Notes under the pieces: model-generated | Databases searched by the model: none | The model's input: only the letters and a program-made list of their open reading frames with translations | Told to the model about the DNA's origin: nothing | Origin: a virus | IMG/VR virus record: IMGVR_UViG_3300011113_000257 | Location: 1 to 64,000 of that record | Strand: one strand, 5' to 3' | DNA length: 64,000 bases | Position numbers and translations under genes: made by a program | Shown here: piece by piece, positions 3,827 to 35,218 of the stretch | How positions within the stretch are numbered: the stretch's first letter is position 1 | Layout of the letters: the number at the start of each line of letters is the position of its first letter

Positions 3827-6800
3827 TTATCTAATGAACCATTCTTCTACCGTATCTGAAATATCTTGGAGTTTACGCCAACGCGGATTAACTGGCTTGC
3901 CCTTAATCATTCTGACTTTTCCAACTAAACCGATAGCATCCCATTCTTGTCTATCTTCTCTTGGAACATACTCGATTTCTGGGTCGTAGTTTGGATTAAC
4001 TTTATCTCTTTGCTGGATTACGGTTGTGTAGTTTTCTGGAAGTTCAATGTCTTGAAGGGCAAAATCATCAAAAGCATAAGCAACTTCTTTGGTTTCTCCC
4101 TTTTCATCAATTTCAGTCCATTGGTAGACTTCATAATCTTCTAGGATTCTACGACCAAAATCATCAATCAAATACTTTTCATTCCAATGGCTCCACGCAG
4201 AGTCGCCAATGAATCCTGGTCTACCAGAAACAATGCCAATAATTTCTTCTGAATCTTCAGTTGCTTCAACGATTTTATTTCCAACAAGAATTACTGGAAT
4301 GCCCACTCGGTCTTCCGCGTTAGGGTTGCCATCAAGCCATTCAAAGTATTCTGCGTAGTCAGCAGGAGATGTAATGGTTGCAACATCAGATGCAATTCTT
4401 CCGTCGCCTCTTACTTGGAAATCTAAATCAGCAGTTCCATTTGTATTTGAATAACAAAGAATAAAATCTGATGTTGTATCCGATGCACGACCTTTATTGT
4501 TGCGATGAAAAATTCCAGCGTATGAAGCGTTACTTAGTATTGAATATGTAGAATAATCTCCAGTTGTAGAGTCAATAAAGTAATAACCTACGTTAGTTGC
4601 TATTACCGCACCATCTCCAGCAGCGATGTTGTTTCCTAGTAGCCTTGATATGTCTAGTGTTCCCTTTAGAACGTGGCTTCCTGCTGAACTAATAAGTAGT
4701 TCATATGTAGCGTCATTAGCATTTGGTCTTATGTAGACCCCGCCACCAGTACCAGCGCCAATATATGTTGTGGTTCCATTGTTTAATAAAACATACTCTT
4801 GACCAGCCATGCCATTAGTAGCAAGACTTTCATAGGTACTACTACCAGTCCACTCGCGTAAAACAAGTCCACCGTCAACACCGTCAGAGTTAGAACGGAT
4901 TGAACCTGTTGCTGTTATATCAGCAGCAGACGCAGTCCCAGTAAAAGTTGGAGAACTTAGAGTTTTGTTAGTTAATGTTTGAGTAGTTGTGTCAGCAACT
5001 AAAACTTCATTTCCACTTGAAAGGTTGGCAGGTAACCTTAAATCAAGGTTTCCTCCAACATCTCCAAGAGGACCCTTTAGGGCTAGATTTCCACTAGTAG
5101 TACCAGTAAAATTAATGAAACTATTATTTATAGAGATAGGGGTTCCAGCAGTATAAGAACCTGTAGTTCCTTGGATGCCCTGTAAACCTTGTAAACCTTG
5201 AAGACCTTGAACTCCTTGAGAACCTGTGTTGCCAGTTATACCTTGTATGCCTTGTGCACCAGTGCTACCTGTTGAACCCGTTGTGCCTTGGAGACCTGTA
5301 AAGCCTTGTAAGCCTTGTAAGCCTTGCGTACCTGTAGAACCTATGGTTCCCTGAATACCTTGAGAACCTGTCGAGCCTGTATCACCTGTTGTTCCCTGAA
5401 AACCAATAAATCCTTGTAAACCAGTTATACCTTGAGCGCCAGTTGCGCCTGTATCACCTGTTACACCTTGAATTCCTTGTGTTCCAGTTGTACCTTGTGC
5501 ACCTATTGTGCCTTGTAAGCCAGTTGCACCAGTTGTTCCTTGAACTCCTTGTTCTCCAGTTGCTCCTGTAGTGCCTTGTATACCTTGTGTGCCACTAAGT
5601 CCTTGAATACCTTGCTCGCCTTGAGAACCAGTTGCGCCTAAGGTTCCTTGAACACCTTGAATTCCTTGCGAACCTGTAGAACCAGTTATACCTTGTATAC
5701 CTGACTCGCCTGTAGAACCTTGAGTACCTTGAATGCCTTGGAGACCTGTAAAGCCTTGTAAGCCAGTGGCTCCTTGTAAACCAATTGTTCCTTGAGAACC
5801 AGTTGCACCAGTTTCACCTGTTGTTCCTTGGCTCCCAGTAATACCTTGAACACCCGTGAGACCTTGGGAACCAGTAACTCCTTGAATGCCCTGAGCACCT
5901 ACGTCACCAGTTGTGCCTTGGGTTCCTTGGGTTCCTTGTAAGCCTTGTGTACCTTGGAATGAAAGACCTTGAATACCTTGGTTTCCAAGTAACCCTTGAA
6001 TGCCTTGTACGCCTTGTACGCCTTGAATACCATCCGAGCCATTTGTCCCATTAGCGCCAGTAGTTCCTTGAGCGCCTTGGATTCCTATAAATCCTTGGAT
6101 ACCATTATTTCCAGAAATTCCTTGACTGCCGACGGTTCCTTGTGCCCCCGTTTGTCCCGCTTCGCCTTGCGTGCCCTGAGTACCGCTCGCGCCCTGTATA
6201 CCTTGCGTTCCCTGAGCACCGCTAGACCCTGTGGAGCCTTGTATGCCAGTTGTTCCTTGGATGCCGTCTGACCCATTAAGACCAGCACTACCAGTAATAC
6301 CTTGAATACCTTGAATACCTTGCTCGCCTTGTATACCTTGTGCACCTGCTACACCTTGAGTTCCTGTTGCTCCTTGTACACCAGTTGAGCCTGTTGTACC
6401 TTGTAATCCAATCTCACCTTGAGCGCCAGTTACACCTTGTACTCCAATTGTTCCTTGGATACCTTGTATACCGCTACCAGTTGTTCCTTGAATACCTTGT
6501 ACACCGTCAGAACCAATGTAGCCAGAAGTTCCCTGTGCGCCTGTCTCTCCTTGTATGCCTTGAACACTTAAACCAGTTGTACCTTGAAAACCTAGTAGAC
6601 CCTGTGTGCCAGTCGCGCCCTGTGCACCTATAGTTCCTTGAGAACCAGCAACACCTTGTGTCCCAGTTAAACCTTGAAAACCTACAGTTCCTTGCGTTCC
6701 TATTGTTCCTTGCGCTCCTGTAGTTCCTTGTGCGCCTGTAGTTCCCTGAAAACCAATTAATCCTTGTGCACCTGCTGAGCCAGTTGCGCCTTGGGCACCT

Positions 6801-8062
6801 GTGGACCCTGTAGTTCCTTGTAAACCAGTTGAGCCAGTAGTTCCTTGGAAACCTAGTAAGCCCTGAGTACCAGTATTACCTGTCGTACCTTGAGAACCTA
6901 TTAACCCTTGTATACCTTGTGCGCCTGTTGAGCCTTGAGTTCCTGTAGCACCTTGAGTTCCCGTGGTGCCTTGAGCACCTAAAACTCCTTGAGAACCTGT
7001 AGCACCTTGTGTTCCTATAGAGCCTTGAGTACCAGTCGTTCCCTGTACGCCAATTAATCCTTGAACTCCCTGCGTGCCTTGAGCACCAAGCAGACCTTGA
7101 ATGCCAGTAGTGCCTTGAGTGCCTGCAGTTCCTTGTGCGCCTATAAAACCTTGTATACCTTGGGCACCAGTAGAGCCTTGCGTACCAGTGGCTCCTTGAA
7201 TACCTAGAGTTCCTTGGACACCCTGTGAACCTATAGTTCCTTGTGCGCCTGTAGTTCCCTGTGTACCCGTAGCGCCTTGAGTGCCTGTGTTTCCTTGAGT
7301 CCCCTGCGTACCCTGTGCTCCAGTTATTCCCTGAAAACCTAGCAAGCCTTGGGTGCCTGTTGCGCCTTGAGTACCTGTTGTACCTTGTGTTCCTTGTATT
7401 CCTTGTGCACCCGTGGAACCTTGAATACCTAATGTGCCCTGTGTTCCAGTTGTACCTTGGATACCTTGTGTTCCTTGGACACCCTGCGTACCTTGAGAGC
7501 CTGTAGTTCCTTGGGTACCCGTGGCACCTTGCGTACCCGTGGTGCCTTGCACGCCTTGTAGTCCTTGGACACCTTGAGTACCTTGCGTACCAGTGGCTCC
7601 TTGAGTTCCAGTTGTTCCTTGGGAGCCTGTTGTACCTTGAGAGCCTGTAGCACCTTGTGCACCTTGTAAGCCCTGTAAGCCTTGAATTCCCGTAGTACCC
7701 TGAGAGCCAGTTGCGCCTTGCAAACCCTGAATGCCTTGCGTACCTTGGAGTTGGGCAAAGCCAAAGCCTTGTAGACCTTGCGTGCCTTGCAACCCCTGAG
7801 TTCCTTGAGTACCTTGAACACCCATTTCGCCTTTGGCACCCTGAGGACCACTTTTACCAAGTTCTATAGTTGAGTTAACCTCAACAAGAGCAACTTCAGG
7901 CGAAGAACCTTCAATAGATATTTGTTGGTTTGTTTGGTTAATTTCAACCGTACCGCTAGGGGAAATACTTATAGTATCTTGACCGTCAGTAATGCTTACT
8001 ACATTGTTTCCGTTTTCTACAGATACTGAAACTACTTCGCCATTGATTTCTACTGAACTCAT
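3827..8062 (-). CDS. Collagen-like tail fibre with C-terminal peptidase G2 (intramolecular chaperone) domain
   Basis: About 900 aa of G-X-Q/T triplets; C-terminus ADYAEYFEWLDGN...NPNYDPEIEYVPREDRQEWDAIGLVGK is typical of the peptidase_G2 auto-cleaving chaperone. Confidence 0.85.
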   Translation of the reverse strand: MSSVEINGEVVSVSVENGNNVVSITDGQDTISISPSGTVEINQTNQQISIEGSSPEVALVEVNSTIELGKSGPQGAKGEMGVQGTQGTQGLQGTQGLQGFGFAQLQGTQGIQGLQGATGSQGTTGIQGLQGLQGAQGATGSQGTTGSQGTTGTQGATGTQGTQGVQGLQGVQGTTGTQGATGTQGTTGSQGTQGVQGTQGIQGTTGTQGTLGIQGSTGAQGIQGTQGTTGTQGATGTQGLLGFQGITGAQGTQGTQGNTGTQGATGTQGTTGAQGTIGSQGVQGTLGIQGATGTQGSTGAQGIQGFIGAQGTAGTQGTTGIQGLLGAQGTQGVQGLIGVQGTTGTQGSIGTQGATGSQGVLGAQGTTGTQGATGTQGSTGAQGIQGLIGSQGTTGNTGTQGLLGFQGTTGSTGLQGTTGSTGAQGATGSAGAQGLIGFQGTTGAQGTTGAQGTIGTQGTVGFQGLTGTQGVAGSQGTIGAQGATGTQGLLGFQGTTGLSVQGIQGETGAQGTSGYIGSDGVQGIQGTTGSGIQGIQGTIGVQGVTGAQGEIGLQGTTGSTGVQGATGTQGVAGAQGIQGEQGIQGIQGITGSAGLNGSDGIQGTTGIQGSTGSSGAQGTQGIQGASGTQGTQGEAGQTGAQGTVGSQGISGNNGIQGFIGIQGAQGTTGANGTNGSDGIQGVQGVQGIQGLLGNQGIQGLSFQGTQGLQGTQGTQGTTGDVGAQGIQGVTGSQGLTGVQGITGSQGTTGETGATGSQGTIGLQGATGLQGFTGLQGIQGTQGSTGESGIQGITGSTGSQGIQGVQGTLGATGSQGEQGIQGLSGTQGIQGTTGATGEQGVQGTTGATGLQGTIGAQGTTGTQGIQGVTGDTGATGAQGITGLQGFIGFQGTTGDTGSTGSQGIQGTIGSTGTQGLQGLQGFTGLQGTTGSTGSTGAQGIQGITGNTGSQGVQGLQGLQGLQGIQGTTGSYTAGTPISINNSFINFTGTTSGNLALKGPLGDVGGNLDLRLPANLSSGNEVLVADTTTQTLTNKTLSSPTFTGTASAADITATGSIRSNSDGVDGGLVLREWTGSSTYESLATNGMAGQEYVLLNNGTTTYIGAGTGGGVYIRPNANDATYELLISSAGSHVLKGTLDISRLLGNNIAAGDGAVIATNVGYYFIDSTTGDYSTYSILSNASYAGIFHRNNKGRASDTTSDFILCYSNTNGTADLDFQVRGDGRIASDVATITSPADYAEYFEWLDGNPNAEDRVGIPVILVGNKIVEATEDSEEIIGIVSGRPGFIGDSAWSHWNEKYLIDDFGRRILEDYEVYQWTEIDEKGETKEVAYAFDDFALQDIELPENYTTVIQQRDKVNPNYDPEIEYVPREDRQEWDAIGLVGKVRMIKGKPVNPRWRKLQDISDTVEEWFIR
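5160..7850 (-). repeat. Coding 9-nt-period collagen repeat (Gly-X-Gln/Thr)
   Basis: Recurrent ccttg on the + strand at 9/18-nt period; translates as GXQ triplets. Confidence 0.95.
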
Positions 8063-14265: not shown

Positions 14266-17200
14266 TTAAGTTAGCAATCTAAGAAGTTTATTCATTTTGC
14301 TAGAAATCTCTCCTTGGCTGTAAACGTCTCCGCCAGCCATGAAAGACTTTAACTCTGCGGTTGCTTCGGCAGCATCTTCAGCGCCAATTTTGTTCTCTAC
14401 TTTTTCAATCATATCTTCCATTAATTTAGCCAAAGCAGGTGGAACATCGCTAAAACGAAGTTTTACAGATTGATTTTGGAAAGGCAGAGGTAAGTTAGAG
14501 ATTGCTTCAGCCAAAGCAGTAGCACCAGTTCTTACATTAGTTAGTGCAGTGCTATCTAAAGCCCCTGTATCAATACGATTTACAGTGTCAATGACATCAC
14601 GAGCGCCCTGAGCAGCGCGGGAGTAGTCCCCAACATTGTCAAGGTTTTCGACCTCACCGATGCGTCGAGCAAGTGCATCAAGTGATGCAACTCCTGAGTC
14701 CCTCTTTAAACGGGCTAAAACTAGGCGAAACTTGCCTTGAGCATCTCTAGGCTGGGTTTTAGCAGTGTATTTACCTTCAGACCGAGAAGCCTCTTTAGAG
14801 GCTGGTGCTTTTGGGTCAACACCACCTGTGGCTTCCTTAGTTGCATCGGCTTCCATAATGTCAGCAGCAGCAGTCAAAGAAGTAGTAGAAATTTTGCTTC
14901 TCATGTCTGCTAAAGAGATTGAAAGTTCCATTCTGCTTGCAGAAAGGTTTTTCCACTCATCTGGTACAAGTTCTGGTTTGCCAAGAGCCTTAGCACGCTT
15001 AGTGATGTGACGGCGAACCTTAGCGCGGTCCGATGGCTTTGAGCGACCATAAGCACGAACAGCCTTGCGTAGGTCTGATACGTTTCGAATTGGGTAAGAA
15101 CCATTTGGTAAAGCCTCGCCAGTCTTGGCAAGTTTTTCACGAACGGCTTCAGACGGACCAGCAGCGACTAAACCTTGCTCTTCAAGTGCTGAAAAAACTG
15201 TTTCAAAATTTACTTCTACAGGCTCATTTTCAGTCACTAGTATTTCTACTTCACTAAGTGAAGAGGATAACTGCCATTGCCACTTCTGGTGCATATCAAT
15301 ACGACCAGCAATAAAATCAGCAACACCCTGCTCATTAGCAGCCTCAAGCATTTGGAACATAGTCTTAAGTTCATCAATTATTACTTCATTTGCAAGAAGC
15401 AAATCTGCAGCAAGAGCACGAGGACTTCCACTTGATAATTCGGAACCTGAAAGGCTAGACATGTGAGCGTAATCTGCTACGCCAACCTTAGGGAATCCTC
15501 CGAGTTTTCGGATGTTTTCTCCTAGAGGGTCAATTGAACTATAGACATCCTCATAGATTTCTTGAAATAGTTCGTGATACTGAGAAAAATCTGAGCCAAC
15601 TACGTTCCAGTGATAGCCATGAGCGCGGAAGTATAGGTTTATTACATCTGCCATAAGAGAATGTATAGCATTCATGTAAAGAGGCTCTATTGAGTCTCCG
15701 CCATGACCTAACGGATAGGTGCACTTAGGGCAACATTCGCCCCTACACATTGATGTGCAAGCAGGGCAACAGCCACATCCGCCACCTGCTGTAATACCAG
15801 ACTCGTTAGTAAATTCTTGTTTAAGCGATGCAAAACGACTCTTTGCAATTTCTGCATACTGGTTAAGTAGGTCTGGGTCATCCTTTAATCGCGCTAGGTA
15901 GTTTGCACCAGCAGCAACAAGAGCCATAACTTCGCCAGATGCGACACGGGCACGGGCAATTGGGAACCCTGGAACATTTACTTGGCATACAGCAACAAGT
16001 TCAAGTGCGCCTTGGATTGGTCGCCAGTCACCTGACGGAGCAGAAGCGCGAATAGCGCGAACTTGGTGAGCAGTAATCTCTGGACGAAGCGAGCCAGCAA
16101 CCCAGATTCCAAATGAATCTTCGCCAGCATGAACATCAGCAAATGCTGAAGCAGTGTCATCATAATGCTTTGCAGCAGACTTAGCAGATGCTTCTAGTGG
16201 AGCATGTCCACCAGCAAGAGTCAGTTGACCTACTGGAATATCGTCGCCTTCTTCAGTACGGCAAACACCTGTGTGGAAGTATGAGTAACCACTCTTCGAG
16301 CGAGGAGGCTTTGTTCCAAAAGAAAGACCAATATGGTCTACATGCCAAGCAGCAATGTGACCGAATACGCGACCATCGTCAGTAACTGTAAGAGGAGTAG
16401 GACCTTCTAATTTAGGGTTCTCAAACCATGACTTAGGTGGGGTCACTGGAATAGAAGCAACTACAGCAGCACAAGCCACTAAAGCGCTCTCATTAGAAAC
16501 AGGCTTCTTAACCTGCATACCGATTGAACTCACAGGTTCCTCCTGTACATCGACGATTTCGTCAGTTAATAGTATTCTACACTCTTGGAAGGCTGGCTTA
16601 GGAACTAAAGTAACGCCCATGATGCGTCCCTTAGTGATTTTTATTTTTCCTGTGCCAACCTTTTTATCTTCGTCAGAAGATGCTTCTTCTTCGGTTGCTT
16701 CAAATCTGTCTAAATCTGCAGAGACTCCGCGAATAAATCCACCACGAACTAAGCGCTCTGCTTCGCGACCATACTCACCTGAATCAAATATGCCATAAGC
16801 ATTTCCAATGCCGTCAGCAGTGCGTTCCATTTTGTCGATACGACCTACAACAACGGAGCCGTCATGCCCTTGAGCAGTCTTAATCTGCCACATTAAAGGA
16901 AGCGGAAGTTCGCGCATCGAAACAGCGCCTACTGAGAAACTTCTACCGTCACCTGATTCTGCTCCTTCAGGTAAAACAACAGGAATAAAGAATTCTGAAC
17001 CAGATGTCGCAGGGGCTTGGAATCCGCCAGAGGCAATAAGAACTCTATTTTTTAGTTCTTCTGCTTGAGCCGATAGTTCTGCATTTGAGATAATTTCTGC
17101 GCTAGAGCGAATGTAGTCATCGCTGTAAGTATTAAAAGCGCCCTTACGACCATACATTTGACGATGAGCCTTATCACCAGTCCACATTCCAGTCATTTCT

Positions 17201-19473
17201 TTATGACGCAAGGCGCAATAGCCCTTAGCACGAGGACCCATGTACTTGGATAGTTGACGAACGCAACGAGTCCAGTCTCCACCAGTTCCCCAGCGAATCT
17301 TGGCTCCACCCTTACCAACAGTCCAATAGCGACGAAGTGTTTCGGCATTTCCGCGATTGCGGTCCGCGCCACCTGCAGCAATGATTGCTAGAAGGTCACC
17401 AGTTGGTCCCCAAAGAACTGACAGTTGAGAGTTAATCTCTTCTTGTCTTTTCAATTCTTCTTCTTTTTCTATGCCACTTTTTTCCATCTGAACCATGACA
17501 TCGGAAAGAGTTTCATCATCTAGGACAACTACAGGAGGTGGTGTAGGAGAGTTAAGGTCAGTCAAAATTGCTTCGTCTTTAACCCATTTACCGTCTTGAC
17601 GCTTGAAAAGGGTAGGAGTTGTTGACTTGTTGTCGGCAGGAATAAGAGCAACCAAATTCATTACAGCCTGTGGGTCATCTTGAGCCACGATAGCCATGTA
17701 AATTGCTGGGACATCTGAATTTTCAGGGGTCAAAGCAGTTAAATCTGCAGATGCAGTAATGCTTTCGTACACCGAAGTGTAGTTTTTAGTTGTTGTGACA
17801 ACTCCGTCTTTCATAGAGACATTTTTATTCCACTTACCTGAGCCCTTGCCTGAGCCCTTGCCTTTAGAAGGACCTTTATAGCCCACAGATTTGGCACTTC
17901 TTTTTGCTTCAACATCATCAGTTCTTACCGGGTTGTACCAAGAACGATTAGGGTAAGTTTTCTTTGAGCCCTTGCCGTATACAGTGTCTAGCCAACGACG
18001 TAAGTACGGGTCGTTATAGGCATTTGGAGCCAATACATCATCAGCCTGAGTATTGACGCTAATTCTAGGAATTTCTTGCCTGTTTGCTTCGTAGTATGCG
18101 CGTTGGTCTGAAACCCACGAGCCCCAGTCGTTAAGCATTGTTTGCATACTGTCTACAGTTAAAGGTGGAAGACGGTTAGGTAGTCCAGCAAGTTTAGGAT
18201 TTGCTGACTGACGAGGTTCGCCAAGAATTCCTGAAACATCTAGCGGTTGACCAAAGCGAGGTGGCGGAACTGCTGCAGGTGTTTCTTCTGCTGGTTTAGT
18301 ATCGCTAATAGCAACGTCAGCAGTGTTTCCGTTGTCAAACTCAACGGTAGCCATTTTGCCTTTTACTGCTTTAATGGTTCCAGTTGCTTGCGGGTTGTTG
18401 GCAACAGTTACTTTTCCGCCCATTTTTGCAAACTTGCCAGAAGCGTCGCGTACTTGGCTTTCTACGTTTTCTGCACGCTCTTCGGGGGTGTAGTTACCGT
18501 CGGTGGCAGATGCTTCAGCAAATGTAAGAGAATCTATGTAACCCCAGTCAATATCTGCAGATGCTGCTAGTACCATTTCAGTTTCGGTAACATCAATGTT
18601 TTGGATGCTAGTAGCCAAAAATGGACTGGAATCTAAAAGAGCAGAGGCAACAAGAGCAGCCTCTGGGTCTACAGGGAAGTGATAGAAAAACTTGCCGTCT
18701 ATGTCAAAATCTAAAGCAGAATCTATGTCTTGGAAAGATTTGCAGGATTCTCCTAAATTAAACCAAGAACCGTTATCCCAAACTTCAACAGAGTTGTCTT
18801 GGTGAATTGCGTATAGACGGTCAATTCCAGCACCATCACCTTGAACTCTAATAGCAAAATCTACATTAGTAGAACTTGAAAAATATGAAACATCAATGTT
18901 GTCTACTTTTTTGTATATTGATGCAGTTACAGTTTTTTTGTTCTCACGCTCTACGATTGCTGAAGCCCAACGCTGAGCAGAGTCGCCACCCCAGAGAGCC
19001 CAAGCGATACGACCATTAGACGGGTAGCCATCTTGTCCTGGTTTGTATCCTTTAGCCTTTTTATCTACTTCATGGCGCGGAAAATATTTTGCAATGTGAC
19101 GCACTTTACGAATACCAATTTGTCCGCCTTTTGCAAGGGTGCGAGCAGTGTTTAATCCAACAGGAGTTCCACCGCGTCCTTCTTCCTTGCGCCACTCAAG
19201 AGCACGCTTGGCTTCAGCCTGAACAGCCTTTGGAATGGTATACATGCGGTCGCTGTCTGCAAAAACTTTAATATCTAAATCAACTTCATATCCTGTAGCA
19301 AGTTCGTATGAAGTGGTTAGAGGTTCTTCTCCATGCTCATTCCAAGAGACTGAAGCAAGCACTGAAGCAATGTTGTCTACGGAGATGACTTCGTTAGTGT
19401 CCTCGTTCACAATGAGAGATACATTGTCGGATGTTAGGAGAACATCACTACCGTTGCGACCGACAAATTGCAT
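14266..19473 (-). CDS. Capsid maturation protease polyprotein (two protease-like domains, Cys-rich motif, Dps/ferritin-like domain, other head modules)
   Basis: Protease at ~16570-16995 (SGDGR, GHDGSVVVGRID, GVSADLD, TLVPKPAF); second domain at ~15950-16445 (GRVFGHIAAW, SGDWR, VNVPGFP); Dps at ~15255-15685 (HGYHWNVVGSDFSQYHELFQEIYE...DPLGENIRKLG). Confidence 0.85.
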   Translation of the reverse strand: MQFVGRNGSDVLLTSDNVSLIVNEDTNEVISVDNIASVLASVSWNEHGEEPLTTSYELATGYEVDLDIKVFADSDRMYTIPKAVQAEAKRALEWRKEEGRGGTPVGLNTARTLAKGGQIGIRKVRHIAKYFPRHEVDKKAKGYKPGQDGYPSNGRIAWALWGGDSAQRWASAIVERENKKTVTASIYKKVDNIDVSYFSSSTNVDFAIRVQGDGAGIDRLYAIHQDNSVEVWDNGSWFNLGESCKSFQDIDSALDFDIDGKFFYHFPVDPEAALVASALLDSSPFLATSIQNIDVTETEMVLAASADIDWGYIDSLTFAEASATDGNYTPEERAENVESQVRDASGKFAKMGGKVTVANNPQATGTIKAVKGKMATVEFDNGNTADVAISDTKPAEETPAAVPPPRFGQPLDVSGILGEPRQSANPKLAGLPNRLPPLTVDSMQTMLNDWGSWVSDQRAYYEANRQEIPRISVNTQADDVLAPNAYNDPYLRRWLDTVYGKGSKKTYPNRSWYNPVRTDDVEAKRSAKSVGYKGPSKGKGSGKGSGKWNKNVSMKDGVVTTTKNYTSVYESITASADLTALTPENSDVPAIYMAIVAQDDPQAVMNLVALIPADNKSTTPTLFKRQDGKWVKDEAILTDLNSPTPPPVVVLDDETLSDVMVQMEKSGIEKEEELKRQEEINSQLSVLWGPTGDLLAIIAAGGADRNRGNAETLRRYWTVGKGGAKIRWGTGGDWTRCVRQLSKYMGPRAKGYCALRHKEMTGMWTGDKAHRQMYGRKGAFNTYSDDYIRSSAEIISNAELSAQAEELKNRVLIASGGFQAPATSGSEFFIPVVLPEGAESGDGRSFSVGAVSMRELPLPLMWQIKTAQGHDGSVVVGRIDKMERTADGIGNAYGIFDSGEYGREAERLVRGGFIRGVSADLDRFEATEEEASSDEDKKVGTGKIKITKGRIMGVTLVPKPAFQECRILLTDEIVDVQEEPVSSIGMQVKKPVSNESALVACAAVVASIPVTPPKSWFENPKLEGPTPLTVTDDGRVFGHIAAWHVDHIGLSFGTKPPRSKSGYSYFHTGVCRTEEGDDIPVGQLTLAGGHAPLEASAKSAAKHYDDTASAFADVHAGEDSFGIWVAGSLRPEITAHQVRAIRASAPSGDWRPIQGALELVAVCQVNVPGFPIARARVASGEVMALVAAGANYLARLKDDPDLLNQYAEIAKSRFASLKQEFTNESGITAGGGCGCCPACTSMCRGECCPKCTYPLGHGGDSIEPLYMNAIHSLMADVINLYFRAHGYHWNVVGSDFSQYHELFQEIYEDVYSSIDPLGENIRKLGGFPKVGVADYAHMSSLSGSELSSGSPRALAADLLLANEVIIDELKTMFQMLEAANEQGVADFIAGRIDMHQKWQWQLSSSLSEVEILVTENEPVEVNFETVFSALEEQGLVAAGPSEAVREKLAKTGEALPNGSYPIRNVSDLRKAVRAYGRSKPSDRAKVRRHITKRAKALGKPELVPDEWKNLSASRMELSISLADMRSKISTTSLTAAADIMEADATKEATGGVDPKAPASKEASRSEGKYTAKTQPRDAQGKFRLVLARLKRDSGVASLDALARRIGEVENLDNVGDYSRAAQGARDVIDTVNRIDTGALDSTALTNVRTGATALAEAISNLPLPFQNQSVKLRFSDVPPALAKLMEDMIEKVENKIGAEDAAEATAELKSFMAGGDVYSQGEISSKMNKLLRLLT

Positions 19474-19554: not shown

Positions 19555-20256
19555 CTACTTTTCTTCAGTTACTGGTCCACCAGCAACCCAAGCATCGCAT
19601 GTTCTACCAGCAGCGCATTTGAAGTCAAAAGCCTCGCAGTATCCAAGGTCTCCAGCGTCAATAGCGCCCCAAGCATCATTTCCTTGCTCGTTGCCTAAAC
19701 CAGACTCAATGCAATCAAGCATTCTAGGTGTCTTGATAAACACTGCGCAGTTTCCGCAACGTGAGGATTTTGCCTCTTCAATATCAGTAGACCAACGGTC
19801 AGCCTTTTTCTGCCAAAAATCTTTATTTGGACGAGCAGGATTTAGAGGACCGTATCCAGCAAATGTAATAGCGTGTTGGCGGTTCTCAAGATTGACCATT
19901 ATGTCTTGGGTGGCAGGAGGACAAACACCACTAGCAGCAGTTATTGATGCAGGAGTTTGAGGCTTAATATCAAACATAGGGTCAATTCCAAACTTGGAAT
20001 TAATTTCTTCGTAAGTAGGGTATTCGCGGTAAACCATATGAGCATCAAAGTCTGGGATAAACTCTGGTTTAACGAATGACAACATAGCGCCAGAACCAAC
20101 AGGATTTGTTTGGTCTGTTGTAGGAAGCCACTCTCCGTTTACGCGGGAAAAAGAGCCTTCTGAGGAGTTATAAATAAGACCTGTTAGTTTTCCTTCTAGA
20201 CCGAAGGTAGCCATCAAATCTGACGGTTTTTCAGGTGCTTCTGGGGTAAATGCCAT
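19555..20256 (-). CDS. Head-region protein with C-terminal Cys-rich (HiPIP-like) module
   Basis: CPPATQD...CGNCAVF...C...GYCEAFDFKCAAGRTCDAW, following an ITAAS motif. Confidence 0.6.
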   Translation of the reverse strand: MAFTPEAPEKPSDLMATFGLEGKLTGLIYNSSEGSFSRVNGEWLPTTDQTNPVGSGAMLSFVKPEFIPDFDAHMVYREYPTYEEINSKFGIDPMFDIKPQTPASITAASGVCPPATQDIMVNLENRQHAITFAGYGPLNPARPNKDFWQKKADRWSTDIEEAKSSRCGNCAVFIKTPRMLDCIESGLGNEQGNDAWGAIDAGDLGYCEAFDFKCAAGRTCDAWVAGGPVTEEK

Positions 20257-20884: not shown

Positions 20885-23800
20885 CTATCCGTAAATTTCT
20901 GTCCAAGTGTCAGGACTATAATTTCTTATTTCGCCCATTCTGTCCACAAACATATTTAAAATTTCTTGCGGTATGTGAGGACCATATTCTGCTCTAAGCC
21001 TGTCAAAAGCATCATCTATAATCTTGTCGATTAACGCCTTTAGTGTTACAGGACCAAACCTATCATAAAATTGCTTACCAAGTTCATTGCTTTGGGCAAA
21101 ACTTCTTGATAAGTAATCGTATGGACTTTGATATCCTACGCTAGTCTGCTCTAGTGCTGTCTGAACTGCTACGGATGCAGCGTTATCAAACGGAATCGGA
21201 ATGTATGATTCAGATTCATTTTGATGAGATGAACTGTTAGGGACATCATTTCCTCTGACCATTATAACATTCTGAGGATTTCTGTCTTCGTTTTGAATTA
21301 CTGCATCAAGAATTAGCATTCCTAAAGAGTTATTCACGCTTACTCGGCTTGAGACATCAGTTTCATCGATATCAAACAACCTAGACTCACTCATTTTAAC
21401 TAAGTATGCGGTGTCTAGTTCAGGACTATCGTTTGGAGCAACAACAAGTTCCTGAGTTCTAAGTGCAGGGATGCTTAAGTTAGTTCCAAGTTCACTAGTG
21501 ATAATCAAATTTCTGTCATCACTGCTGTGCTTTTCTATAACTGGTAGACCTATAATTCCAAGAGCACGTCCAAGTGCATTAGATGATGTCTCAGCCAAGG
21601 CAGCAGTGTTAGTCGAGGCATCTTTAACATAAAATACTTCTCCAGTTATGTTACTTTCTACTTTCCAACTATTACTTGCTCCAGAGTAAGGACCAGATAT
21701 TGAAGGTCCTGTAGTAGGTGATACGGAAGACTGTCTAACAAGTTTTGTAATTGTTAGAGGAAGGATTTCTCCTGTGTCTGGATTCATAACTTCTTGAGCC
21801 ACGCCCTCAGGCATTAAAGGATTAAAAATGCTTGACGGCAAGGTCAACACGGACTCACCTTGGGAACTAAAACTTTCTCTGTTAGGTTCTAGGGCTAGTC
21901 TATCTTTTTGTAGTGCGCTTAAAATATTGACTAAATCAGAAATAATTCCAGCATCTACAGCCCTTCCAGAAGGCGTGTCTTCATTTGTTAGTGAAAGATT
22001 TTCTTGGTTTGCAAGAGTAGTAGCGATATATTTACCAAGAGCAGCCTTAGCAGGTGGAGATAGTAACGAAACAGAACGACTTCCGTCATAGCCTACAAGT
22101 AGCGTTAACTCGTCTGCATATGGTGCGATAATTTCTCCATCACCTTGATATGTTTCTCTATTAGTGAAGTGTCTTTTTATGTTTTCGTTATTCTCGAAGG
22201 AAGTTTCTCCTGTAGAAGACAAGACATCTACAGCATCTTTCATTGCATCGTAGGCGTGGTTTTGTTTTCTTTCAGTAGCGTTAGGGTCTAGAACTTTTTT
22301 GCCATTCCATTGATTAGCAATCATGTAAGACTTACCGAACCACTTAAGTTGAGTCTTTCTTGCGTTAGGGTCCCAGCCAACCATTGCTAATTCGCGAGGG
22401 GTAGGGAAAGACGGATGTACATCCATAACTGCTGCTTGACGTAGTTCTTCCCAAGAAGAAACGCCATAGGCATCGAAGGCTTGCTGAACGTAAGCCTCCA
22501 TGTCAGCACGAGACCTAGCCTTGTCAGCAGAACCAGAGACATAGCGACTGCCATCTCTTTGGATTTCATCATACATTTTTTTAAGTCTGTCATACCCAAC
22601 AGAAGCACTTGCCCAGTTGAAGCCAGTAATAGCCCAGACATAAGCACCTGTCGCATCGCCACCACCCGCAGCGGTAACTGTAATGAATTTTGCTCCGTTT
22701 GCTATGTAGTAATTTTCAGCAAATTGATTGAATAGAGAGGAGAAACCTGAAGGTGTTGCTCCTTCAATAAACATGCTTGCATTGTAGACATTATCAAGTT
22801 TTCCATCTACAAAGTTAAAAGTTCTACGAGCATTGTATGTTTTTCCTGTAGTAGTGTCTTTTATTGTTACAAAAGCATATATACTACTAGCACCTGTTTC
22901 TCTCACTCTTCCGTCAGCAGTCACTGACTGAACTTTTAGTGCTGGACCAAACATATTTCCAGCGCCTAGTATGAGTTTGAAGGCTTCGTTTAACTCTCTT
23001 TCAGTTCCTTCCCTACTAATTCTAGCAACCTCTGCTATTGAGGGACGAGATGTTCCAGCGCGAGCAATTTGAGCAGCCTTTTGCGCTTCCCAGCCTTTGT
23101 CTTGGAAGTATTGCTGGTCGACAAAATCTCCGTTAGGAGTCAATACTGGGTTGTCATCTATTCTGTCAAAATTAATATCTGACACGCCTTCCATAGAACC
23201 ATCAAACTCTAACTGCTGTACAGGAAGGATTTCTCCCATTAGACGGTTAAGGAATCTCCTAGCAAGAGGTACTCGGTTAGGTGTCAACTCAAGATTTTCA
23301 AAACTTTCTTGAATTTCTCCAGCCTTAGCCGTTGCTCGTGCCTGCTTTGCGGCAAGGGTCTCTTCATTATTCTGAGACACTAATTCGGAGACCTTATCTC
23401 TTATTGAGTCAACTAATTGGTCATAATTACTTGAAGGTGTTAATTCATAAACATCAGACTCGCCATTAGGTTTTACTACGGAAACACTTGCAGAACTTTC
23501 TCCATCAAGGCTTATAGATACGTCTACTTTGTACCCATTTACATAACCCTTTGGCTTGTGCTGGAAAGATGCCTCCCATGTATCGTTGGGACCCGCAGAG
23601 TCTTTTGTAAAACTTCTATATTCAGAAGAATTATAGTCTGGAAGACTTCTAATTAAATCTCCTAATTGTCTTCTAGAAGAACCAAATCTTGTAATTTGAT
23701 ATTGATTCACGCTATCGCTTGCTTTAGTTACAAGTTGGTCGATAGCATCATTAGTTTTAGGCTTTGATGCACCATTTATCAATCGACCATCGTCCGAAAC

Positions 23801-26800
23801 TCTATTTATGGTCCAACCACCTCTACCAAGGCTATGAGTCATAACTCCTTCGTAGCCAGTTAGAGGAATTTTTATAGAAATAGAATTGTTATCTTCTCTG
23901 ATAGACACTTCAAAAGGAGTAGCAGATATTAAATTACCTGCTCTAGTGGCAAACTCGGCTCTAATGTTTTCTAACTCTTCTGGAGTTATTTCTCGGTCTG
24001 CTCTTGGTTGTAGAGGATAAGGGTTTCTAGCAGTAGCCCTACGAACAGTTGGAGTGGTAGCAGTAGTTTGAGCAGGTTCGCTTGTTGTTTGTCTAAAAGG
24101 TCTAGCACCTTCAAGGCGAGATACTGCTTCTAGACCTGCTGCATCAAGGTCGGCAAAATACCCAACTTCATCAAGACCGCCTCTTGCAACAGAGTATCCC
24201 TGAGCATCCTCATCCCACTTAATTCTAACGGCAAGACTACCATTCCTGTCGTCAATAATAAGTAGAGTATCATTTCCTGCTAATCTACTTATTTCTGCCA
24301 TTTTTGCTCTTATGCCGTTTTCTGAATTTCCTGAAGTTAGGCTATTAAAGTTATCTACAAAGTCTGCTAACTCAGTGGCTCTTTCTTGCTCTGGGTTAGT
24401 AGGCGCAAGAGTTGGCGTAGGTTGCTCAGCGCTCTCTTCTTGAATCGGACCTGAAGTTGGTGGAGGAGGTGGAGGAATTGAACCAGCAGGAACTGCATCT
24501 ACACTACGAAGTGCATCTAAGAAATCCCGACCATGACGCGCTCTAGCGGTGTTACTAAACCAATCAACAGAACCATCAGGCTTAAATTCTCCAACATTAC
24601 GCTGTCCTACGGTATCAAAGATATAAACTAAATCTCCAACATCTGTTAAAGCAGTATTTCCTGCTCTTAGGTCTCTACCACCTTTGTCGTAGTAGCCCAT
24701 GAGGTTTTGATAAACCTCTGGAGATAACTGAGACTCGTTGTATAGCGCATCAGTAGGAGTAAGAGTTGATTCAGGTGTTGGAGTGCTAGGAGGTGTCACA
24801 GGCGGGGTTCCGCCACCGTCATTATTGTCTCCGCTAGGACCTGCTGGAGGTGTTGGAGGTGTAGGAGGTGTTCCACCCATCATACGAATCCAAGTACGAC
24901 CACGTCCATCTCGAGAATCTACATCAGGAATCACAAGAGGCAAATCGCTTTGTGCAAGTACAGGCAAACCATTTTGACGACGGTATTCGTTAATTTGGTC
25001 TAGAATTTCGCCCCACATGCGATACGCACGACGAGTTTCACCAACTTGAGCACCTTGACGCTTAGATATATACGGGTAAATCTTTACTTGGTATGTTCCG
25101 TCTTGATTTCGGTAACTTCTCTTGACGATGTATTTATTCGTCAGAGCATATTGCTCTCTACGCATAGGGTCAAGATTTGGACGTGTTTCAAGTTCCTTTG
25201 GTGGTTCGTAATCAGTACGGTTTTCCATACCTGCAGTACGACCATTTAGGAACAACATACGGGTAGCCCATAGAGCATAGGAGCCATCGCGGAACGCAAC
25301 AATTGCATAGCCTTCGCGTGGGATATCTCCATCATTTTCTACAACATGCCAGCCAACTACTGTTCCTTCGCCTCGGCTATTCCAGCCGTCATATGAATGA
25401 ACTACTCTATCGCCAACACGGGCTTGGTTTACTCCGTCAGCGTATATATTGTTTCTTGCTTGCCACTTACGGAAAATTTTGTTTCCAATGATTCTCCTGC
25501 GCATTGCAGGAGTTCCTGACATCATTGACTCATCTGTTGTGTAAGGGGATGAGTCTCCTGGAGTAACTGCACGGACATCAGTATTTGCGTCAAAGTTGTA
25601 GTCAGCCTGTATAGAGCCATCTGCAAGACCATTAATCATGTCCGCATGAAGAGCCTTTGCTTCTCCAAGTGTTGCAGCACTTGATGCCTTTGCTCGTCGG
25701 TTAGGGTTATTAGGGTCAACAGCAACCACTTCGTAGCGCTCTGGAGCGCCGTCAATACGAGGAAGTAGAATTGTTGCTACGTCATACTCTCTACCGTCTG
25801 GACCAACTACACGCTGAGGCGCAATAATAGTTCCACCTTCAAGAATGACGTTACCATCAACAGGAGTTCCCGGTTCGAACACAACTGGTTCTTCGGTACC
25901 TTCTTGGTCGTCATCATTAAGGTCGCTTAGGTCCTTGTTAAGAAGTTCTGTAGTTACATCTTCTGGACTTTCTACAACGCGCTCGCCTTGAGCACCAAAG
26001 ACGCGACCAATACTCAAATCTCCTGCTTGTTCAGGGTCACTCATATCTAGTGGAACAGTAGACTCGTCTGGATTTCTCCATACATAAGAACCTTCACCGT
26101 CTACGCTTTGGTAGATTAAGTAGGCACCGTTTTGAATTCGTGCACGCTTTGCTTCTAAGTTCTGTTGCTTTGAACGGGCTGGCTTCTTAGGAGTTTTTAC
26201 TGCTGGCTGTAGGAATTTGTTAATCTCTTCAGTAGCAGATTTTGCATCTTCTAAAGTTTCAAATCTTTGGAAGTTAGCAATGTTTACTCCCTCGCCAAGG
26301 AAGCGCTCCTGTGCTTCTTCCCAGTTGCTTAAGCCCTTGTCCTTAAAGACACCAACTTCATAACCGCCACCAAAACGCTTAGGCATTTGCATAACTGTAA
26401 TTTTGTAAGCAACGCCATCCTTGTCATAGACAATCGCTTCAGACCTCTGTGTTGGATAAGTAACATCTAGAATCTGTGAAGGCTTTTCTTCTTCAGTAGG
26501 CTTTGTGTCTTTCTCAGCGTTAAACATTTCTAGAGAAAGAGCAATAATGTCTTCATGCAATGCGCGTAGTACGCTATCTCCAATTGTCTGGGCTTCATCA
26601 ACAGAGTCAACAATGTTTTCTTGCTCGCCAACTAAGTCGCCGTTTTCATCAAATACCTTGGTAGTAGCAGTAAGTGTTCCATCTCCGTTATCTTCGACAG
26701 TTGTTTCAGCGTTAAAATCGTCGATATTGTCAGCAGTGTGCTCTAACCTTGGAGCAGGCTTCTCACTAGGTTCTACAACATCAGTTAATGTTGGGTCGCC

Positions 26801-32368: not shown

Positions 32369-33480
32369 GAAGAAGAACCCTTCTCGAAGCGAGGCAATAA
32401 GTCAGCGTCTTTACTGTCGTATGTATATTCTGCCACATTTTTTACACGACTATATGGGTCTTCGTTATCTTTAACTGCTCGCAACCACGTTGCGCGAAGT
32501 GCTGGGATAACTTCATAACCTAAACCAGAAAATTCTGCTAAGGCAGTAATAGCATCTTCTGTTGATTCGTATTCTTCTAAATCTTTAAGGGTTGTAGAAA
32601 GTTCTTGCTCGTAGTACATGTCATCTACATCTTGCTTAAGTTTTGCTCTGTCGTATTCAATAACAGCATCATCGTTGACAGCACCTTCAGGAAGAACTGC
32701 AAAACGGCATTTGCCCATAGGCTCTACTGGTAGAGCAATAATTTGGCACTGGTCTCCGCCTTGATAGAAAACGCAGTTAGCACAGATGACACCAATCGAA
32801 GCAACTTCATTTTCTGCAGCAGGAGTATAGCCAGCCCAAACGCCAATCTGGTCTTCGTTGAACTTTCCGTGCTTAGCAACAACTTCAAGCAGAGCATCTG
32901 CTAGGTCTCGCTCTTCTGGAACCAATCGAGCAGAGGCTGTAAGCGCTGAAGCAGAACTTTTTGTACTACGAGGATGTGACGCAGGAAGTAAGTCGTTATC
33001 TTGCTTGTAGGCAGCGTTAGAAGGCTTTCCAGACTTAAGAAGTTTTAGGAAAGCGTTAACGCGAGCCATAGCCCACTGGTCGCGAGTCATACCTGGTCGA
33101 TGTGAGACTGAGAAAGCACCTGCTCCACGGCGGTAAACAGCCTTAAGCATTCCTAAAGTAGCCTTGCGACCTTCTTTAGCCTTTTCGTTATGGTCAGAGA
33201 CTTTATTTTTTAGAGACTCTTCTACTTTTGCAGAAAACTTAATAGCCTTAGATTTTCCAGTTGAGGCAGAGCCTTTAGGGTTTGTGCTGGAACCTTTAAT
33301 TCTGTCTTTCTTTGGAGCAGGAGTCTGAGAAATAGTTCTTTTCTTTTTCGCTGCAAATTCTGCATCGCTTGAATCGTCAGAAGCATCTATTGGCACACAG
33401 TTAGGAACCATTTGTCCATCTTTGCCTTTCTTCATACCAACTTGCTTATAGCCATCCCAGCAAGGATTATTATCAGGCAT
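32365..33480 (-). CDS. Modular head-associated protein (CWxGY..VPNCVP, YRRGAGAF and 4-Cys HiPIP-like modules)
   Basis: Motifs read from the translation; CANCVFYQ...C...C follows ALTASA. Confidence 0.6.
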   Translation of the reverse strand: MPDNNPCWDGYKQVGMKKGKDGQMVPNCVPIDASDDSSDAEFAAKKKRTISQTPAPKKDRIKGSSTNPKGSASTGKSKAIKFSAKVEESLKNKVSDHNEKAKEGRKATLGMLKAVYRRGAGAFSVSHRPGMTRDQWAMARVNAFLKLLKSGKPSNAAYKQDNDLLPASHPRSTKSSASALTASARLVPEERDLADALLEVVAKHGKFNEDQIGVWAGYTPAAENEVASIGVICANCVFYQGGDQCQIIALPVEPMGKCRFAVLPEGAVNDDAVIEYDRAKLKQDVDDMYYEQELSTTLKDLEEYESTEDAITALAEFSGLGYEVIPALRATWLRAVKDNEDPYSRVKNVAEYTYDSKDADLLPRFEKGSSS

Positions 33481-35218
33481 TTTCTACACCTTCTGTAGGC
33501 GGACCAAACAATTCAGGGAAGTTTTCTACTGTTGGTTCTAGAGTCATACCAGTTTCAACTGGTTCTTCTGTAGGGGCTTCAGGGGCTTGAGGCTCCTCTG
33601 GTGTTGGCTCTATTGGTGCTTCTCCTGAAAGGGCTTGAGTAACCTCAGGTGGAAGTGGACCAACAGAATTAGCCTGTTGCGCACCCTTAATCTTTGTCAT
33701 CATGTCAGGAGCAAGGGCAGCGAGTGCTGCTTCTGTAAGTTCAGGTGTGAGCATTCCTTTTTCGAAGAACATACGAATTGCAAGTTCTTCAGGAGTAGGT
33801 GCATCTGCATCCGAGAAACCGTGAGCATGTCGCCAAGTAGAAAGCGAGATTGCCATCTTGTCAAAACCTGCATCAGCATCAGCAGCGCGGTCATTGCGAG
33901 TTGAAATTGCTGATGGGTCATACCAAACAACAATGCGGTCTACGTCTGATTCTGCGAAACCATTTGCCAAAAGGTAAGGGCGTAAGTAAACAACTGTAAT
34001 TGCATCTGCAATAAGAAGCATGAGTGGCTCAATATGGGTCTTGTAGAGCGTCTCATCAATCTGCAGGGCGTTTGAGTACTTGACGTTGGCTAAGCCAGTG
34101 ATTACGTCTTTAGGCACGTCTACGCCCTGCAGAATGCGTTCCAGTACGCGGTCAGCACGTTGGGCTAGGGCAGGGTCAAAGGAGCGCTCAAACTTAAATT
34201 GCTTAATAGCATCGCCAAGTTCTGCAGGACCACGAATGATAAGTGGAACAACTGCGCTGGCAGAGTCCTCATCCTTAATAGGAGTGGTCATTGCATCGAT
34301 AAGTTGCTCTTCAAAGTCGTCTTGCTGTTCTTCAATAAGAATGTCTGGGTCTACGTCTACGTCATCAGAGTATGGGTAGTCAGGTTGTGCATTTGCTGCA
34401 ACGCTTAGACCATCTGGTAAGTAAAGTGCGCCAGCGTTGAGGCGTGAACGCGCTGTTGCACGGAAAGTACGATTAAGAAGTAGAAGTTCTGCGCAAAGGT
34501 CTAACAAACCGCGTAATGATGAGTCTGCCTCGTCTGAGTAGCGTGGGTGTGAGCGCCAGATGCGTCCTACAAATGCTTGACTACCTAGTTGATGGCTAGA
34601 TTTGTTGTTTGAGCCACCCATACCGTTGCCCATAGCCTGTTCACGGCGACCAATTACGCTGTAACCACCCTTAGGGTCTGCAAGAACTTCGTCAACGGAC
34701 TTAATATCCCACGACTCAGAAGTTCCACGCATAGGCTGTGAAGGCATTTGCACTAAGTAGCATTCGCCAGCAACAGAAAGGTTAAGAGCAGCGTCGCGCA
34801 AGAGTCCAGCCTGACCACCGTAAGCGGAATCAAGACGACCTAAGGCGCGTTCTGCGCCATCCTTCATGCGTTGGTCAATAATTGAAGAGTCTCTTACATT
34901 TACAGGAGTTTCAGAAGGATTTTCTACAACTGCTGCGTAAATGCGAATGCGTGAAATTACAGAGGCTACAAGATTGAATGCATATTTTAATTCGCCGATT
35001 GCATCGTAGTATTCCCAAGCCTCGGCTTGCCAAGAAGATGAATTAGAAGAGCGACGTGCGCGAAATTGTTCGTATTCCCCTTTGTCCCCAATTTTCATTT
35101 GTTGCGCTGCAGCAGTTAAAGGACGAATTGCTGAATATGGCAGTGGTTCTAGTGGAGTACCACCAGAATTTAAAGCGCGTACTGGACGGTCGGCATCATC
35201 GCGACTAAATACACCCAT
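33473..35218 (-). CDS. Portal protein
   Basis: LTAAA...WQAEAWEYYDAIGELKYAFNLVASVISRIR N-terminus and SAVVPLIIRGP motif of cluster-B-like actinophage portals; first large gene of the head module. Confidence 0.85.
   Translation of the reverse strand: MGVFSRDDADRPVRALNSGGTPLEPLPYSAIRPLTAAAQQMKIGDKGEYEQFRARRSSNSSSWQAEAWEYYDAIGELKYAFNLVASVISRIRIYAAVVENPSETPVNVRDSSIIDQRMKDGAERALGRLDSAYGGQAGLLRDAALNLSVAGECYLVQMPSQPMRGTSESWDIKSVDEVLADPKGGYSVIGRREQAMGNGMGGSNNKSSHQLGSQAFVGRIWRSHPRYSDEADSSLRGLLDLCAELLLLNRTFRATARSRLNAGALYLPDGLSVAANAQPDYPYSDDVDVDPDILIEEQQDDFEEQLIDAMTTPIKDEDSASAVVPLIIRGPAELGDAIKQFKFERSFDPALAQRADRVLERILQGVDVPKDVITGLANVKYSNALQIDETLYKTHIEPLMLLIADAITVVYLRPYLLANGFAESDVDRIVVWYDPSAISTRNDRAADADAGFDKMAISLSTWRHAHGFSDADAPTPEELAIRMFFEKGMLTPELTEAALAALAPDMMTKIKGAQQANSVGPLPPEVTQALSGEAPIEPTPEEPQAPEAPTEEPVETGMTLEPTVENFPELFGPPTEGVENA

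Follow-up and report, generated by a model that had tools for sequence, protein, structure and literature searches.

A Dps domain lies between candidate cleavage motifs in the putative capsid maturation protease polyprotein of an uncultured lake phage

The internal proteins IPI-III of phage T4, which bear a cleavable capsid-targeting sequence, and the inner-body proteins of phage phiKZ, which are cut by gp175, are loaded into the procapsid and trimmed by the prohead protease at a short consensus sequence. None of these internal head proteins is known to be a ferritin-family enzyme. We have analyzed a locus of an uncultured lake phage in which, by contrast, a candidate cargo of that family, a Dps (mini-ferritin) domain, shares a single polypeptide with the putative protease. 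The stretch studied, hereafter the window, comprises the first 64 kb of a linear IMG/VR virus record of 110,857 bases (IMGVR_UViG_3300011113_000257; estimated completeness 83%). The Dps is encoded within a single open reading frame (ORF) of 1735 amino acids (aa), termed P0001, at positions 14266-19473 of the minus strand, between the portal and major capsid genes that lie on the same strand.

Phage Dps and ferritin genes have been described as stand-alone auxiliary genes in freshwater phages (PMC6802176) and in the gut Gratiaviridae (PMC8008677), and others occur in Clostridium phage phiCT9441A and Cronobacter phage GAP52. Stand-alone phage Dps proteins of 143-144 aa are 50-59% identical to the module in the window. 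However, they are separate genes, sometimes placed beyond the head module, whereas the Dps of the window is in frame within the head protease and lies between cleavage-type motifs. A second comparison is with the encapsulins, HK97-fold shells that enclose ferritin-like cargo such as Flp, IMEF and EncB/C (PMC6668986, PMC8346489). The likeness, which on the phage side is deduced from the genes, is that of an HK97-fold shell around a ferritin-superfamily ferroxidase with a dedicated means of inward attachment. Yet encapsulins recruit their cargo by a short C-terminal targeting peptide or by fusion to the shell protein; that cargo is not of the Dps type and occupies a shell without a genome, whereas the phage Dps is an internal, covalent part of a protease polyprotein whose shell would then package DNA. 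By analogy the phage system may work like an encapsulin, but it is not a member of that class. A literature search found no published description of a Dps within a prohead or capsid maturation protease; phage Dps and ferritin appeared there only as separate genes for defence against reactive oxygen species (ROS). A 2026 paper does speculate that procapsid scaffold or cargo proteins may be enzymes (PMC13669383).

A Dps domain had been proposed at this position in an earlier note made from the DNA sequence alone, and comparison with profiles and structures bears this out. The Pfam Ferritin profile PF00210 matches aa 1268-1409 with an expectation value (E) of 1.3e-14 and a score of 54.8 bits (cut-off 24.5), covering profile positions 2-139 of 142. 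The segment also matches the phage Dps family phrog_3636 (E 1.4e-22) and 53 Dps sequences of the PDB, the best being Pseudomonas aeruginosa Dps (8ff9, E 1.9e-20); the NCBIfam DpsA/Dps matches were sub-threshold. An AlphaFold (AF2) monomer model of aa 1230-1440, calculated with an alignment of 56 stand-alone relatives, has a predicted local distance difference test (pLDDT) score of 85 overall and above 90 in the core bundle. The modelled fold is a four-helix bundle (module residues 36-61, 67-94, 122-149 and 153-175) with a short helix in the BC loop (103-109), while both ends of the module are modelled as flexible linkers (pLDDT 50-60). All the top Foldseek matches are subunits of Dps dodecamers, with a template modelling (TM) score to the target of 0.83-0.93 and a root-mean-square deviation (rmsd) of 1.2-1.5 Å.

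The ferroxidase-type residues and peptide strings remarked upon in the earlier note are all present. The ligands H1288, H1300, D1315 and E1319 are separated by 12, 15 and 4 residues, and W1289 directly follows the first histidine. The same 12/15/4 spacing is found in the Dps proteins of Listeria and E. coli. From the profile matches and the model, aa 1262-1409 is a true Dps with a predicted intact ferroxidase center. It shares with cellular Dps proteins (P. aeruginosa PA0962, 8ff9; Bacillus subtilis MrgA, 2chp; Helicobacter pylori NAP) the four-helix bundle, superimposable with the rmsd given above, a core of ~145 aa, and the H/H/D/E ligands and adjacent Trp at identical spacing. It differs in its location inside a 1735-aa polyprotein, in an N-terminal tail rich in Cys rather than Lys, and in its acidic C-terminal tail. 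The Dps module as a whole has an isoelectric point (pI) of 4.47 and a net charge of −19; aa 1408-1438 carry a net charge of −8, and the Cys-rich N-terminal tail is neutral. No Lys-rich tail of the E. coli DNA-binding type was found in the module by composition. The suggestion that the Dps binds DNA directly is weakened by this acidity and by the lack of such a tail, and for the same reasons we favour detoxification of iron and H2O2 over DNA binding. A separate Dps product from a nested start was considered and rejected: the ATG of M1267 has only a GGAG ~20 nt upstream, and an ATG at the Cys cluster has none, so neither start shows a persuasive ribosome-binding site.

The Dps is an integral part of the larger protein. 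Translation of P0001 meets no stop over its 1735 aa, and the same unbroken frame is present at ~90% identity in independent assemblies, in one of which (L005) the frame stays open for 1719 aa. The Dps module of L005, a 90%-identical copy, gives a ratio of nonsynonymous to synonymous substitution rates (dN/dS) of 0.10. An error of assembly or gene calling that fused a Dps gene to a protease gene would leave neither a continuous frame without stops in many independent assemblies and sources nor purifying selection across the junction module, and we regard it as practically negligible.

The earlier note placed the Dps within the prohead protease, and this location holds. P0001 matches PHROG families of head maturation proteases and virion proteins with E values from 4e-57 (phrog_18402) to 1e-91. 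Pfam Peptidase_S78 is borderline at aa 867-968 when the region is scanned alone (21.7-21.8 bits against a cut-off of 21, E 2e-4), was absent from the Pfam scan of the whole protein, and matches 3 of 31 diverse homologues (best E 7e-07). In this region H870 and S918, with a spacing of 48 residues, do not vary among 33 close homologues, and in the 31 diverse ones each is conserved to at least 90%. In HK97 gp4, H65 and S114 lie ~49 residues apart, a similar spacing, and H870 and S918 may be the catalytic dyad. The position of the gene between portal and major capsid genes agrees with what is expected for a Peptidase_S78 protein. Because of the PHROG matches, the curated annotation of homologues and the borderline Pfam match, P0001 is probably a protease of the S78 family. 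The module belongs to a very large family, with 4299 clusters at 50% identity and more than 1800 long proteins; the protease region had no match among PDB sequences.

The closest GenBank relatives at the protein level are Actinomycetia phage DSL-LC01, from a lake metagenome, and Microbacterium phages of 186-195 kb, including Cece, Pumpernickel, Big4, A3Wally and Zooman, where the homologue is listed either as a capsid maturation protease or as hypothetical; a megablast search of GenBank phages with the gene gave no match at the nucleotide level. Cece gp70 and the DSL-LC01 'capsid maturation protease' align with 79-87% of P0001 at 40-51% identity. The polyproteins of Cece, Pumpernickel, Big4 and DSL-LC01 have the same order of modules, motifs of the LVAAG type and the same gene neighborhood (portal, giant ORF, small ORFs, protease, capsid, tail). 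They differ in the slot taken by the Dps, which in these phages holds a helical linker of ~76-80 aa and neither Dps nor Cys cluster. The annotation of DSL-LC01 (L001, record positions 63803-68722) divides the polyprotein homologue into three successive 'capsid maturation protease' coding sequences, which may reflect frameshifts or sequencing errors, not separate genes.

The Dps module was said in the earlier note to be bracketed by the candidate cut sites ITAGG and LVAAG, and we find these at aa 1227-1231 and 1435-1439; the span of 15150-15800 given there fits the 15157-15795 found here. We defined a cleavage-type motif as [ILVM][TVAI]A[DGA][GA] and compared its frequency with that in 500 shuffles of the sequence. 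The motif occurs 7 times in P0001, at 5 distinct sites, against 0.48 expected, and none of the 500 shuffles reached 7. All copies lie at borders between modules (aa 697, 1185, 1227, 1435 and 1533), and the same pattern is seen in Cece gp70 and the metagenomic homologues. Of 82 fusion proteins, 75 have the motif ahead of the Dps core, at a distance of no more than 70 aa, and just one has it inside the core. Downstream of the Dps the strict motif is found in 31 of the 82, and most of the others, among the matches listed, show the variant GL[IV]A[AST]x in the equivalent position. In the window, the ORFs containing the motif are the polyprotein, the capsid protein, the portal, a giant ORF and a 382-aa ORF; with one exception it is absent from the tail and early ORFs.

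The capsid protein provides a second view of the motif. It has an N-terminal acidic delta-like region of ~265 aa that ends with VTAAA (aa 231) and ITAGA (aa 262), at positions conserved in the aligned relatives (six or seven); the conserved body of the protein starts just beyond it. This is where a maturation cleavage site would be expected. The region has a helical start, followed by a very acidic low-complexity spacer with ELSTEE-like repeat units, and closes with the conserved VTAAA and PVAITAGADIPG motifs. Since the motif is over-represented, confined to the head module and marks the maturation boundary of the capsid protein, it is plausible that the Dps is released inside the procapsid at the flanking motifs. 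The piece between them, aa ~1231-1438, has a mass of 22.8 kDa.

Conservation was examined in fusion clusters drawn from JGI, ENA, NCBI and Logan assemblies, with the search limited to long proteins clustered at 90% identity. This gave 83 clusters of 950-2360 aa that bear this Dps in giant polyproteins. At identities down to ~40%, H1288, W1289, H1300, D1315 and E1319 are retained in 82, 81, 82, 82 and 83 of the 83, respectively. The conserved ligands, together with the low dN/dS, favour a working enzyme over a mere spacer. This bears on the possibility that the Dps is a 12-fold oligomerization core that clusters polyproteins and so nucleates or sizes the procapsid core, becoming inert, degraded or expelled later. 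Such an assembly hub would suit the Dps fold, whose dodecamers are very stable in the family at large, the flexible linkers modelled at both ends, and an acidic charge typical of scaffold-like proteins. Yet a structural role would not need near-total conservation of the ligands and W1289; close relatives assemble with just an 80-aa linker in the slot, and the capsid protein already has its own delta-like domain, so that the polyprotein need not be a scaffold. We consider this role unlikely. The modules of the polyprotein look instead like a protease together with internal head proteins.

The earlier note had raised the question of which cargo occupies this slot in related proteases. We surveyed 150 polyproteins in which the end of the protease and, downstream, the basic YPIRN module are both present, and two kinds of occupant were found. 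In 81 the slot holds the Dps (~256 aa), accompanied in some by the Cys cluster; in most of the other 69, Cece included, it holds the helical linker alone, ~80 aa in length (76-80), and a few linker-only cases have a doubled YPIRN module. No other cargo was found among the 150. Every relative, among the matches listed, whose protease is at least 75% identical to that of P0001 has the Dps. On the protease tree the presence of Dps changes at least 6-10 times, yet the Dps cores form one clade, which suggests that a single Dps cassette has been exchanged or lost.

A tree of 299 Dps cores places the Dps of the window, with good support, in a clade of 81 rows; giant polyproteins account for 79 of these, and the giant architecture as a whole requires at least three origins. 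This phage-type subfamily is present in at least 577 IMG/VR viral contigs; on the cellular side the same kind of motif-based scan yielded 16 loci in 185,579 species genomes, of which the closest three are on contigs of lake metagenome-assembled genomes and most others are ~30%-identical Dps proteins of Nitrososphaerota. Other fusions are also found. In proteins of 465-740 aa (L008, L010, L018 and L025) a domain like that of aa 68-182 of P0001 is followed by Dps and then a clear HK97-type protease; the phrog_2859 domain stands directly before Dps in such small S78-protease fusions (L010, L018 and others). Elsewhere (L007, L077 and L078) the gene that directly follows the portal encodes Dps in fusion with Cys-rich stretches, a module resembling the 233-aa ORF of the window, and DUF5824. 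In L075 (5356-8568) an N-terminal protease-like region is followed by a DnaJ-like CxxCxGxG zinc-finger Cys repeat, Dps and an acidic tail, and in L016 (8569-10965) Dps precedes a zeta-toxin-like P-loop (GxxGxGKT) region inside a head module. The same type of Dps also occurs in stand-alone genes of 144-170 aa. The likeliest explanation of these arrangements is that a phage Dps gene has been recruited repeatedly into head-assembly proteins. A further protein, P0024, has two tandem Dps domains after an N-terminal S78 protease.

Immediately ahead of the Dps is the cluster that the earlier note described as metallothionein-like. The cluster is real and resembles metallothionein in composition, with C-x-C, CC and C-x-x-C motifs, but it has 8 Cys and not 9. 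A Pfam search with the 52-aa Cys stretch found nothing up to E ≤ 5, and so no homology to a metallothionein family; it is therefore not classed here as a metallothionein. These 8 of the 15 Cys of P0001 fall within 19 residues that include no aromatic residue, and this is the sole Cys cluster of a real ORF in the window. Identical Cys spacing with varying filler residues is present in 22 of the 83 fusion clusters, and the cluster always ends 33-41 residues ahead of the first ferroxidase His. It is missing from the seven relatives closest to the window protein, which have ITAGGAGDIEPLY there instead. Its presence changes at least 8-15 times on the protease tree, and other lineages have different Cys-rich stretches ahead of Dps, of the CGCGC type in S78-first proteins. 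The cluster is modelled at low confidence. It is most likely an optional accessory, a metal-binding tail on the exterior of the putative dodecamer. In P0055 the Cys cluster is duplicated in tandem with one Cys changed to Ser in each copy, and the Dps Trp is changed to Leu.

The reading that we favour, with moderate confidence, is that the Dps and its Cys-rich N-terminal tail form a cleavable cargo module, serving within the capsid as a ferroxidase and iron sink against Fenton damage. We infer a path from loading and cleavage, through oligomeric state and retention, to a protective role, as follows. The polyprotein would co-assemble into the procapsid, where the conserved C-terminal domain (aa 1538-1735) is suspected to tether it to the capsid interior. 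Judging by the statistics and positions of the motif, the protease would cut both the polyprotein and the N-terminal domain of the capsid protein at sequences of the form hydrophobic-T/V-A-[A/G/D]-[A/G]. Cutting would free a ~23-kDa piece (aa ~1231-1438) comprising Cys tail, Dps and acidic tail, which from its fold would form the usual Dps dodecamer, too big to pass the capsid pores. In the head, the dodecamer would oxidize and store Fe(II), using up H2O2. Fenton chemistry would in this way be kept off the packed genome, and the virion would persist in sunlit, peroxide-containing lake water.

The same evidence for loading would equally serve an ejected effector, in which the head serves as a store for the Dps or its Cys tail, which then passes with the DNA into the next host, there to shield the genome or alter iron and redox state. 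The T4 proteins IPI-III, which are injected and processed, provide a precedent. Delivery on infection, put forward in the earlier note, is weakened by geometry, since a folded dodecamer of ~9 nm would be far too wide for the tail channel unless unfolded; moreover, the module has no evident translocation signal and is an acidic protein without a DNA-binding tail. We judge delivery of this kind to be distinctly improbable.

A number of observations weigh against an in-capsid ferroxidase. The acidic Dps module might be expelled by the packaged DNA, or degraded. The scissile bonds within the motifs are our guess. The AF2 model of the protease (aa 832-1200, 33 homologues) has a pLDDT of 38.6 and is unusable, and hhalign of the protease against the canonical S78 domains of the small Dps-protease fusions gave a probability of 0.2-0.9%, with a short local alignment that looks sensible (a PAF/PAY motif) but is statistically weightless. 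The cultured relatives, including Microbacterium phage Cece, and phage DSL-LC01 are all without Dps. Stand-alone Dps genes are found outside obvious head modules, between replication and baseplate genes in L036 and ~3 kb upstream of the terminase in L045. Finally, the published view of phage Dps and ferritin genes is one of ROS defence for the host (PMC6802176, PMC8008677).

The last points would favour a Dps directed to the host, in which fusion simply ensures late expression at a fixed ratio, and self-cleavage in the cytoplasm releases free Dps to shield the infected cell; stand-alone phage-type Dps genes do adjoin replication or baseplate genes. However, the fusion partners are head-assembly proteins or a P-loop protein within the head module, the position of the gene is late and structural, and the motif that flanks the Dps is the maturation motif of the capsid protein. 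Prohead proteases normally work within assembled procapsids. We think release into the host cytoplasm improbable, and retain the in-capsid ferroxidase as the preferred reading.

The features of the polyprotein and its flanking head genes are collected in Table 1. In the order of the minus strand, the head-tail genes are the portal, a 371-aa DUF5824 protein, a 3827-aa ORF, ORFs of 204 and 233 aa, the 1735-aa ORF, the major capsid protein, a 382-aa ORF, the major tail protein, an adaptor and a collagen-repeat fibre. Within the polyprotein, a 'GADRNRG...RRYWT' module (phrog_6439; aa 702-772, 17158-17370) comes just after the first cleavage-type motif. In some homologues (P0012 and P0066) it is doubled, each copy with its own preceding LVAAG or LAAGG motif, as if the modules were shuffled like cleavable cassettes.

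Table 1. Positions in the window of the modules and candidate motifs of the polyprotein, and of the flanking head genes
Feature	Position	Strand	Basis or remark
N-terminal conserved domain, aa 68-182	18928..19272	minus	phrog_2859
Candidate motif 1, IIAAG, aa 697-701	17371..17385	minus	before GADRNRG module; position kept in Cece and metagenomic homologues
Protease module, aa 832-1188	15910..16980	minus	PHROG; S78-like part aa 867-968
Candidate motif 2, LVAAG, aa 1185-1189	15907..15921	minus	end of protease module; near-invariant in alignments
Candidate motif 3, ITAGG, aa 1227-1231	15781..15795	minus	N-terminal border of Dps module
8-Cys cluster C-x-CC-x2-C-x3-C-x3-CC-x2-C, aa 1233-1251	15721..15777	minus	composition
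Dps (mini-ferritin) core, aa 1262-1409	15247..15690	minus	Pfam, PHROG, PDB, AF2 model
Acidic C-terminal tail of Dps module, aa 1410-1434	15172..15246	minus	two short modelled helices
Candidate motif 4, LVAAG, aa 1435-1439	15157..15171	minus	C-terminal border of Dps module
Basic 'GEALPNGSYPIRN' ('YPIRN') module, aa 1440-1532, pI 10.6	14878..15156	minus	in all relatives, with or without Dps
Candidate motif 5, LTAAA, aa 1533-1537	14863..14877	minus	module border
Conserved C-terminal domain, aa 1538-1735	14269..14862	minus	conservation reaches the C-terminal residue in Cece gp70 and every metagenomic homologue
Portal protein	33473..35218	minus	phrog_776, E 1e-105
Major capsid protein, 666 aa	12153..14153	minus	phrog_777, E 3.4e-81

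Several neighboring genes, all on the minus strand, have features of their own. The 3827-aa ORF (20885-32368) lies between the portal and protease genes, and its sole Pfam match is to an RNase_T/DEDD exonuclease (aa 1494-1659, E 3e-18). Two cleavage-type motifs are present around aa 3149 and 3231, so this giant protein may reside inside the virion and undergo processing. The tail fibre of 1411 aa (3827-8062) is built mostly from repeats of the collagen triple helix (Pfam Collagen, E 1e-132) and ends in a Peptidase_G2/intramolecular-chaperone autocleavage domain. The 233-aa (19555-20256) and 371-aa (32365-33480) proteins of the head module each have a 4-Cys domain, CxNC...C...C. The DSL-LC01 homologue of the former is annotated 'high potential iron-sulfur protein', an identity that we find unsupported for these domains (Pfam HIPIP E 1.5, no PDB match); in the ESM Atlas they matched only unnamed viral clusters.

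More widely, we propose, tentatively, that there is a large group of tailed phages, mostly from fresh water, whose DNA-filled capsids may act as encapsulin-like compartments for the detoxification of iron and peroxide, with Dps dodecamers delivered by the maturation protease and in some lineages bearing a metal-thiolate tail. If this is true, phage 'ferritin' genes that are now counted as auxiliary genes helping the host would in this lineage be components of the virion. A natural enzyme cargo in a DNA-packaging HK97-fold shell would be the missing functional link that has been discussed between procapsids and encapsulins (PMC13669383). The locus would also present a natural cleavable loading cassette, and potentially a route for packaging other proteins into phage heads. 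Virions of these lake phages would be iron-bearing particles with built-in protection from oxidative decay, and their protein-bound iron would bear on the Ferrojan Horse hypothesis and on the survival of virions under sunlight-driven peroxide.

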